Assembly (NCBI RefSeq): GCF_024223415.1
Contig: NZ_CP100500.1
DNA length: 64,000 nucleotides
From: Escherichia coli
GTDB lineage: Bacteria; Pseudomonadota; Gammaproteobacteria; Enterobacterales; Enterobacteriaceae
Strand: one strand, 5' to 3'
Below are positions 17,396-17,450 of the stretch, one piece after another. The position numbers were made by a program, and so were the translations under genes. Below the pieces are notes generated by a model. The model was not told where the DNA came from, did not search any database, and was given only the letters and a program-made list of their open reading frames with translations. Position 1 is the stretch's first letter; each line of letters begins with the position of its first letter.

Positions 17396-17450
17396 AGGCA
17401 AATGCCAGTAAAAACTGCTTCATAGCGCGGATTTTTACTGGCGTTTGCCT
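17396..17450. repeat. 19-bp inverted repeat (long hairpin) in the yqcA-gudP intergenic region
   Basis: AGGCAAATGCCAGTAAAAA ... TTTTTACTGGCGTTTGCCT; 19 pairs including one G-U, 17-nt loop, no downstream U tract. Confidence 0.6.

Follow-up and report, generated by a model that had tools for sequence, protein, structure and literature searches.

A long hairpin between yqcA and gudP of Escherichia coli, possibly a transcript-end structure recycled from a pair of CdaR-type boxes

What is the role, if any, of a long and almost perfect inverted repeat that lies between yqcA and gudP in Escherichia coli? The 64,000 nucleotides of E. coli DNA analyzed here (the window) carry, in order, syd, csrB (15362-15721, by Rfam match), yqcC, truC, yqcA, an intergenic region of 434 bp, gudP, and gudX. 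According to the list of open reading frames (ORFs) and to the RefSeq annotation of identical E. coli DNA, yqcA (16893..17342, + strand) encodes a flavodoxin and is the last gene of yqcC-truC-yqcA, and gudP (17777..19129, + strand) encodes a glucarate/galactarate transporter. The region between them is 100% identical to that of many complete E. coli genomes, K-12 included. The arms of the repeat, AGGCAAATGCCAGTAAAAA at 17396-17414 and TTTTTACTGGCGTTTGCCT at 17432-17450, enclose a loop of 17 nt and are complementary at 18 of 19 positions; the sole non-Watson-Crick position, T17403/G17443, forms a G.U wobble in RNA of the + strand and leaves a C/A mismatch in the - strand. The first-pass annotation, which had described a near-perfect 19-bp inverted repeat at 17396-17450, downstream of yqcA and upstream of gudP, was thus correct on both the repeat and its placement. 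The base of the stem lies 49 nt from the yqcA stop codon, and weaker complementarity, detected by repeat search, reaches out to 17380-17414 and 17432-17466. No longer inverted repeat with arms at most 60 nt apart is present in the window.

The arm sequence occurs at this locus alone within the window (0.13 matches expected by chance), and no copy of the hairpin was found elsewhere in the 64 kb, so that it lacks the many copies typical of REP/BIME elements. Of 5,426 complete E. coli genomes, 5,425 carry the hairpin, each at a single locus, which rules out a dispersed repeat or mobile element. A query with the hairpin alone gave "two places" per genome; this most likely reflects a self-match of the palindrome on the two strands, given that the whole intergenic region matched a median of one place per genome. 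RefSeq annotates no feature at the hairpin. An Rfam covariance-model search of 14500-18500 (E up to 1) matched only CsrB, and a search of six orthologous loci gave no family match to the hairpin either, which rules out a known RNA family. The only ORFs that overlap the region are mechanical ones of 42-55 aa, none of them conserved, and a small protein-coding gene was rejected as well.

As + strand RNA, the full predicted hairpin spans 17392..17454 and consists of 27 outer pairs, a bulged A, 4 inner pairs, and an 8-nt loop (RNAfold; -45.5 kcal/mol, z = -7.41, none of 200 shuffles as good). The - strand folds at -38.3 kcal/mol (z = -6.75), the + strand hairpin being the more stable because the single mismatch becomes a G.U pair there. 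Apart from one bulge, 23 of the stem pairs are consecutive (17396-17418 with 17427-17450), and U.G and U-A extensions bring the number to 27. An A5 tract in the left arm (17410..17414, + strand), two positions of which are at least 90% conserved across taxa, pairs with a T5 tract in the right arm (17432..17436, + strand). The loop between these tracts (17415..17431, + strand) is the fast-evolving center of the element and contains a weak inner stem, CTGC 17415-17418 with GCGG 17427-17430.

The element had initially been said to lack a U tract and not to be an obvious intrinsic terminator. The first statement is accurate for the complete 27-pair stem, which is followed by GGAGTCAAG; the T5 tract lies inside the 3' arm, directly 3' of the inner stem, where the sequence reads ATTTTTA (the 18-pair version of the stem is followed by GTTTGCCT). 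The second is accurate for E. coli, where the stem adjoining U5 is the 4-bp CTGC/GCGG with its 8-nt loop rather than a GC-rich stem of about 5-14 bp, and where a terminator scanner called no intrinsic terminator at the hairpin; it fails for Citrobacter, Superficieibacter, Raoultella, and others, in which the center is a conventional hairpin followed by a U-tract. Direct intrinsic termination at the E. coli hairpin should be weak, owing to the missing U-tract after the full stem and the 4-bp inner stem. Immediately 3' of the hairpin there is a C-rich, G-poor tract (17455..17526, + strand; 18 C vs 5 G, 79% pyrimidine) that ranks in the top 1-2.5% of windows for C minus G. It is untranslated, contains no conserved ORF, and in composition resembles a Rho-loading (rut) site. 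In E. coli no other strong structure than the long hairpin lies between the stop codon of yqcA and the control blocks of gudP.

We tentatively favor, as an explanation that falls a little short of probable, a hairpin that forms the RNA 3' end of yqcC-truC-yqcA, acts as an insulator, and was recycled from a pair of CdaR-type boxes. Ancestrally, two such boxes with a spacing of 43 bp would have stood on either side of a small stem-loop resembling a terminator, at the outermost upstream end of the control region of gudP. In Escherichia the hairpin would be transcribed at the end of the yqcC-truC-yqcA message and work mainly at the RNA level, its 27+4 bp defining and protecting the 3' end of that message. 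Polymerase that passes the hairpin would probably be released by Rho loaded on the downstream C-rich tract, after which exonucleases would shorten the transcript as far as the stem base; a fraction of polymerases might also terminate directly at the internal U5 or at GUUUGCCU. The net effect would be to keep yqcA transcription out of the CdaR/CRP-controlled gudP promoter about 190 bp downstream. A literature search for yqcA and gudP found no paper naming both genes and none on yqcA that covers the intergenic region, and the Term-seq, TERMITe, and SMRT-Cappable-seq supplements searched contain no yqcA or gudP entry.

A comparison of 80 yqcA loci, one per GTDB species, places the hairpin within a larger conserved arrangement. 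Where gudP follows yqcA, CTGAATCG is followed after 74-76 bp by GTCAAGCGA, after a further 71-72 bp by TTCCGTGAA, after 75 bp by TGCACGGTGAG, and after about 177 bp by the gudP ATG. The hairpin occupies the first of these intervals, here called the distal module, whose left flank box CTGAATCG (17379..17386, + strand) is conserved and lies 74-76 bp upstream of GTCAAGCGA in 20 taxa. The module was found, and aligned, in 28 enterobacterial taxa: Escherichia, part of Citrobacter, Salmonella arizonae and diarizonae, Silvania, Kosakonia, Phytobacter, Superficieibacter, Raoultella, and some further lineages. The module is missing from Enterobacter, the Citrobacter freundii group, Leclercia, Buttiauxella, and others, in which yqcA is followed by REP elements or other GC hairpins; a hairpin of some kind downstream of yqcA is thus the rule.

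Within the module the center turns over completely while the flanks are conserved and the length keeps to 74-76 bp, except in Salmonella arizonae and diarizonae, where the CTGAATCG-GTCAAGCGA distance is 66 bp, shorter by about one helical turn. Both the constant length and this difference of about 10 bp point to a constraint at the DNA level, which counts against the favored RNA-level reading. In other genera a GC-rich stem-loop fills the position of the loop (17415..17431), and the equivalent of the T5 tract is a terminator U-tract. By lenient criteria, 15 of the 28 taxa have at the center a hairpin with a T-tract after it on the + strand, and 8 have one on the - strand. A GC-rich stem of terminator size with a short loop is present in Citrobacter, C. 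koseri, Superficieibacter, and Enterobacter sp. 10-1, and in Superficieibacter a consensus scanner calls CCCTTTAAATATAAGGG with TTTTTG as a + strand terminator.

Two boxes are conserved in the module, and each coincides with part of an arm. Box L, (G)GGCAnnTGCC, is GGCAAATGCC in the left arm of E. coli (17397..17406); GGCA/TGCC is conserved in all 28 taxa. Box R, GGCATTTTCAC or GTGCATTTACAC in other genera, is GGCGTTTGCC in the right arm (17440..17449). The E. coli boxes are self-palindromic sequences of the form GGCxxxTGCC whose centers are 43 bp apart; another such sequence, GGGCTAATGCC, is found 112 bp further downstream than Box R.

Pairing between the arms is itself conserved in part. When the E. 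coli structure is imposed on the 28-taxon alignment, 67% of stem cells pair, vs 64% after shuffling and 31-47% when the partner columns are slid. The core TGCCnGTAAAA/TTTTACnGGC is paired in most taxa, and covariation is seen at column pair 44/76 (C-G in 9 taxa, A-U in 7, U-A in 3) and at 33/87 (A-U in 8, G-C in 8, G-U in 6). The inner stems differ in sequence between genera and keep their palindromy. Folding each taxon separately gave -18 to -28 kcal/mol in Citrobacter, but no long hairpin in Raoultella, Kosakonia, Phytobacter, Silvania, or UBA3516, although these keep the boxes. The central two bases of Box L vary freely with no matching change in the partner arm. Conservation of both arms with compensatory changes, suggested in the first-pass annotation as a check, is found in part: the boxes are conserved and two column pairs covary, and several genera lack the long hairpin. 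What is kept across all module genera is the two boxes and their spacing, not pairing, which counts against the favored RNA-level reading.

The long hairpin is a feature of Escherichia. When taxa are folded separately, every one of the six Escherichia lineages has it, at -27 to -40 kcal/mol, and no other taxon does; its outermost GGC/GCC pairs are likewise confined to this genus. The Escherichia-specific change from TCAT to GCCT in the right arm comprises four substitutions, each of which adds a pair. All other module genera have a GC-rich hairpin (GCCCTCC..GGGAGGGC) right after yqcA; in all six Escherichia lineages the whole of this yqcA-proximal hairpin, together with most of a conserved stretch next to it, has been deleted. 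Within Escherichia, 5 of 38 arm columns are variable compared with 12 of 17 in the loop (Fisher P = 5e-5), but the arms are no more conserved than the flanks (P = 0.25). Among sampled E. coli strain variants the arms are invariant, and differences fall in the loop (a C-to-T variant) and the upstream flank. Two of the arm substitutions among Escherichia lineages are compatible with wobble pairing on the + strand and two with wobble on the - strand, and a strand preference was dropped on this count. A supposed drift of Box R away from its consensus in Escherichia was not upheld either, its score being similar to that in the closest Citrobacter relatives.

An RNA processing or stability role, one of the two proposed at the outset, is supported as a candidate by the extreme stability of the fold, the substitutions that extend pairing, the covariation at two positions, and the loss of the hairpin next to yqcA. 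The favored transcript-end reading also draws on the greater stability on the yqcA-sense strand, the central hairpin and T-tract that are more frequent on the + strand, the low variability of the arms relative to the loop, the C-rich tract, and the hairpins found after yqcA in taxa that lack the module. The wobble-type changes with no strand bias and the equal conservation of arms and flanks count against it. Template switching at quasi-palindromes could in principle yield complementary arms without selection, a consideration that weighs against a selected RNA structure.

The other proposed role, a protein-binding palindrome such as a CdaR-type site, has to be judged against the control region of gudP. 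Downstream of the hairpin, Block A (GTCAAGCGATCCATTTCATACT, 17455..17476) has TCAAG.GA and TCA.A invariant in 22 taxa and resembles a CRP site, AGCGA-N6-TCATA in E. coli and AGCGA-N6-TCACA in other genera, with its center at 17465.5, 21 bp from Box R. The same pair of half-sites (TGTGA/TCGCT) makes up a 2.3 nM in vitro CRP site at yffQ (PMC12871828), and by analogy Block A is a candidate CRP site. Block B (TTTTCATTTCCGTGAAGTGGATTCCA, 17517..17543) is a conserved gudP upstream block with a further CRP-like sequence, CGTGA-N6-TTCCA, centered at 17535.5. The palindromic Block C (GGGCTAATGCC, 17551..17561) matches the CdaR-type motif better than any other sequence in the gudP region and is conserved in every taxon, with or without the hairpin module. 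Block D (AATGTTGTGTTGTTGCACGGTGAG, 17587..17610, + strand) overlaps the -35 region of the gudP promoter, whose putative -10 hexamer TATACT (17629..17634, + strand) belongs to the invariant block CTTTTTATACT. Transcription of gudP would start near 17641, which would put the CRP-like sequence of Block B near -105, Block C near -85, and Block D near -42, and Box R and Box L about 197 and 240 bp upstream. In Superficieibacter a scanner calls a GTGAGA-17-TATACT promoter. A - strand sigma-70 promoter composed of TTGACT (17458-17453) and AAAAAT was considered and rejected, since its -10 reads TAAAAAC or AAAAAC in other genera and TTGAC more plausibly belongs to Block A.

The CdaR-type motif used here, GCAWWTGCAC, was derived from the garP/garD and cdaR promoters and not from measured binding; a literature search for a CdaR footprint, ChIP, or SELEX experiment found no binding-site data. 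Two copies of its core, GCAWWTGC, lie between garP and garD and another upstream of cdaR; in all, the 962 bp upstream of gudP, garP/garD, and cdaR contain 4 matches, where 0.09 would be expected from the window background for a motif that was, it should be said, defined post hoc. An exact 14-mer, GCATTTGCACAATG, is common to cdaR and garP. An alignment of the garP/garD intergenic region of E. coli and six further genera shows three boxes conserved in all seven (a, CATTGTGCAAATGC; b, GAGCATATGCACATA; c, GGGCGCTAATGCACAG), along with the garP -10; a known in vitro CRP site is also present in it (PMC12871828). The promoters of gudP, garP, and cdaR have in common TTGCAC(R)(R)TG, 20 nt, and TAT(R)CT, and the geometry at gudP (TTGCACGGTG, 20 nt, TATACT) is the same as at garP and cdaR. 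With a position weight matrix (PWM) trained on gar and cdaR sites only, Block C scores 11.0 bits in E. coli (rank 8 of 127,978 window positions), Box L and Block D 7.0 each, and Box R 4.2. In other genera Box L reaches 10-12 bits in most cases and Box R ranges from -1 to 10 bits. Pairs of boxes recur at a spacing of about four helical turns: 42 bp between gar a and b, 42 bp between Blocks C and D, and the 43 bp between Boxes L and R. The gar boxes a and b are themselves an inverted repeat, complementary at 10 of 11 positions.

These observations favor the possibility that the arms act as DNA, forming a distal CdaR-type operator pair four helical turns apart beside a CRP-like site. Such a pair might aid assembly of CdaR and CRP, cooperatively or by looping to Block C/D, or it might control a divergent promoter on the - strand; the ability to form a hairpin would then be a by-product of two palindromic boxes and the A/T tracts. 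This is the main rival of the RNA-level reading, and we regard it, its two modes taken jointly, as quite possible, if on balance improbable. Besides the enrichment of the core, the shared 14-mer, the seven-genus conservation of the gar boxes, the common promoter signature, the blocks picked by the matrix, and the recurring spacing, it accounts for boxes that are kept where the arms cannot pair, for a Box L whose center varies freely, and for the constant length of the module. However, the E. coli matches are weak: the score of Box L has P = 7e-4 per position, about 0.6 matches as good are expected by chance in the intergenic region, and the score of Box R is lower still, while the motif is itself deduced from sequence. 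Moreover, Enterobacter, the Citrobacter freundii group, Leclercia, and Buttiauxella have gudP and no module, from which it follows that the module is dispensable for gudP control. A distal operator pair also leaves unexplained the palindrome and T-tract at the center of the module, as well as the complementarity that extends beyond the boxes in Escherichia. The resemblance of the boxes to the motif at garP/garD, cdaR, and gudP, and the shared 42-43 bp spacing, thus suggest a CdaR-type site, as had been proposed, and lend the idea real but indirect support that is tempered by the low E. coli scores.

The case for a divergent promoter comes from outside Escherichia. In non-Escherichia taxa a -10-like hexamer on the - strand (TAGGAT, TAGAAT, TACACT, TAAAAT, cATAAT, TATGAT, TAAACT, or TAACAT) lies 34 nt from the start of Box L, the distance found at gudP, garP, and cdaR; A is invariant at position 2 in 20 taxa, and T is found at position 6 in 17 of 20. 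Box R and the CRP-like Block A, 21 bp beyond it, complete a spacing that mirrors the proximal gudP promoter. In such a promoter Box L would be at about -42, Box R at about -85, and the CRP-like site at about -106. Beyond the hexamer there is a conserved stretch (GGTCGTT..CTGGCA) and then, showing some covariation, the GC-rich hairpin; in Raoultella and Enterobacter sp. 10-1 this hairpin abuts the yqcA stop codon and is followed by a clean T4. A putative small RNA read from this strand would consist of GGUCGUUAUUUUGCUUACUGGCA, the GC hairpin, and a U-rich tail ending at the yqcA stop codon.

In Escherichia the same position is occupied by a degenerate hexamer, TAAAAC (17367..17372, - strand), with C at position 6 and a spacing to Box L that is shorter by 1 nt. 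This is so in all six lineages, and with the stretch downstream of it deleted it counts against control of a divergent promoter there. The sequence patterns raise the rather doubtful possibility that in Salmonella, Citrobacter, Kosakonia, Phytobacter, Superficieibacter, Silvania, and Raoultella the module is the control region of a divergent promoter of CdaR/CRP geometry that drives a conserved, unannotated small RNA of about 70 nt, and that Escherichia deleted the RNA body and terminator and recycled the box pair and spacer into the hairpin at the end of the yqcA operon. If so, a small RNA induced by sugar acids, and absent from E. coli K-12, would belong to the glucarate/galactarate regulon. 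The idea that the distal module arose by inverted duplication of the proximal gudP promoter was rejected: local alignment of the reverse complement was not significant (z between -1.6 and 2.9), and the two halves of the region have only spacing and short boxes in common. The same lack of significant overall similarity counts against the arms as a distal operator pair.

It is unlikely that the hairpin is a functionless relic in Escherichia, perfected by a template-switch mutation after the deletion of the divergent unit and the yqcA-proximal hairpin and persisting neutrally since. The four clustered changes in the right arm could stem from a single such event, and the degenerate -10, the deletion downstream of it, the wobble-type changes with no strand bias, and the absence of the module from many taxa that have gudP would all fit a relic. 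Against it stand arms that have hardly changed over six Escherichia lineages while most of the loop columns did, and the near-universal presence of the element in complete E. coli genomes, with invariant arms in the variants sampled. A hairpin of -45 kcal/mol in a transcribed 3' untranslated region (UTR) would, moreover, affect the RNA 3' end whether selected or not. Least probable is an RNase III processing site in the yqcA 3' UTR, where cleavage would remove a protective structure and lower yqcC-truC-yqcA expression: RNase III requires roughly two helical turns of duplex, and the 23-27 nearly uninterrupted pairs exceed the length of at least about 20 bp expected of a substrate and are far more than a terminator needs, but the long duplex is limited to Escherichia.

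The reading of the hairpin as an RNA end and insulator is not exclusive of a distal operator, and the two may coexist in a picture more composite than a single palindrome. The distinction has a practical side, as the printed sequence of the "CdaR promoter" fragment used in glucarate biosensors contains the hairpin (PMC4551912, supplement): whether it is an RNA end and insulator or a distal operator decides whether it can be trimmed from that fragment. The comparison also yields a testable model of the CdaR site (a GCAWWTGCAC box, pairs 42 bp apart, and a box 34 nt from the -10) and a worked case of regulatory DNA recycled into RNA structure after a neighboring terminator was lost. The hairpin findings do not overturn current understanding; the new leads are the putative CdaR box with its promoter geometry and a possible divergent small RNA in other genera.

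Bidirectional intrinsic terminators consist of an A-tract, a GC stem-loop, and a U-tract, and terminate transcription on both strands. The E. coli element resembles them in having an A5 tract, a stem-loop, and a T5 tract in this order directly downstream of an operon, but yqcA and gudP are co-directional, not convergent. The homologous center in Citrobacter, C. koseri, Superficieibacter, and Raoultella is like an ordinary intrinsic terminator, a GC-containing stem of 5-8 bp followed by T4-T6; the E. coli element differs in that the stem preceding U5 has 4 bp, A-U pairs and 13 further pairs beyond the U-tract contribute most of the stability, and no Us follow the complete stem. REP hairpins have a stabilizing role, and related taxa have REP elements at the same place as the E. 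coli hairpin, which differs from them in being single-copy per genome. Protective 3' stem-loops have also been described at Rho-dependent transcript ends (Dar and Sorek 2018, PMC6061677). With both of these classes the element shares a very stable hairpin in the 3' UTR that lacks a U-tract and is followed by a C-rich, G-poor untranslated tract; unlike theirs, its arms hold boxes conserved for reasons other than pairing. Its long near-perfect duplex of more than 20 bp recalls the RNase III substrates in the rnc and pnp leaders, although it lies in a 3' UTR and not in a leader. Finally, it is like the putative box pairs of the CdaR (SdaR, PucR-family) promoters at garP/garD, cdaR, and gudP in its GCAWWTGC core, its 42-43 bp spacing, and the CRP-like site 21 bp away, but the E. 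coli arms match the motif weakly, and the spacers at gar and in the proximal gud region have neither hairpin nor T-tract. Taken together, the hairpin is best filed as a useful if fairly ordinary, unannotated boundary element, akin to a terminator or a 3' protective hairpin and possibly an operator pair.

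In the Escherichia loci, the region between yqcA and the conserved module upstream of gudP (Box L and Box R) carries a deletion of about 75 columns in our alignment of this interval (A5; window 17343-17392), when compared with the non-Escherichia loci that have the possible small transcription unit described below. The deletion takes out the GC-rich hairpin found directly 3' of yqcA in all other module-bearing genera, and because this hairpin has been removed, the long hairpin (17392-17454) is the sole strong structure after yqcA in Escherichia. Rearrangements adjoin the long hairpin in two E. 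coli strains, both of which retain it together with yqcA. In 2014C-4135 (L093, ~135-165) divergence starts right after GGAGTCAAG, 5 nt beyond the stem; EC6563 (L094) is without gudPXD, and barA now adjoins the intergenic remnant.

In non-Escherichia genera, sequence features suggest a possible small transcription unit, unannotated and on the minus strand, between yqcA and the module (~2936-3070 in L007, L008, L022, L023, L024, L046, L048, L052, L056, L057, L061, L079, L060, L071, L076 and L080). Here, a -10-like hexamer sits at CdaR-promoter distance from Box L and is followed by a conserved stretch, GGTCGTT(A)TTTTGCTTACTGGCA, and then by a GC hairpin, GCCCTCC..GGGAGGGC, whose U-rich tail falls at the stop codon of yqcA. 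The possible unit had no match in Rfam. The module itself is 66 bp long in Salmonella arizonae and diarizonae (L023, L024; ~3040-3110), compared with 74-76 bp in all other genera; the shortfall of about 10 bp corresponds to one helical turn, and the flanking boxes are retained.

Elsewhere in the window, the CsrB small RNA gene lies on the plus strand at 15362-15721, just upstream of yqcC (Rfam RF00018, 384 bits). Annotation of this gene is present in K-12 but missing from one RefSeq entry whose sequence is identical (L001). Other local inverted repeats include a 22-bp AT-rich palindrome (5960-6003), a REP-like palindrome, TAGGCCGGATAAGGCG... (21957-21992), and a perfect 16-bp inverted repeat with an 8-nt loop, AGAAAGGTAACTTCCC (42427-42466), near which is a 17-bp inverted repeat (42213-42252).

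The gudP upstream region contains two CRP-like sites, AGCGA-N6-TCATA at 17455-17476 (the second half-site being TCACA in other genera) and CGTGA-N6-TTCCA at 17526-17543, each of which is 21 bp from one CdaR-type box. The Footprint-seq CRP paper does not refer to either site in its main text. Downstream of these, the inferred gudP -10 is TATACT (17629-17634) and the start would be near 17641, which makes the 5' UTR ~135 nt long, with several invariant blocks in it. Within this inferred UTR is a small GC hairpin on the minus strand, CGCCGAATACGGCG (17657-17670), which was called terminator-like. On the plus strand this palindrome reads GCGCCGTATTCGGCG, and other genera have a different hairpin there (GCAG...CTGC).

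The gudP promoter has a signature in common with those of garP and cdaR: a G(C/T)(A/T)(T/G)TTGCAC(R)(R)TG box followed by a TAT(A/G)CT -10, with 34 nt from the first base of the box to the -10. Copies are found at window 17587-17634 for gudP, at ~5020-5050 on the minus strand of the garP locus (L083) and at ~1900-1940 of the cdaR locus (L084), and this common arrangement of sequence provides a candidate model of the CdaR-dependent promoter.
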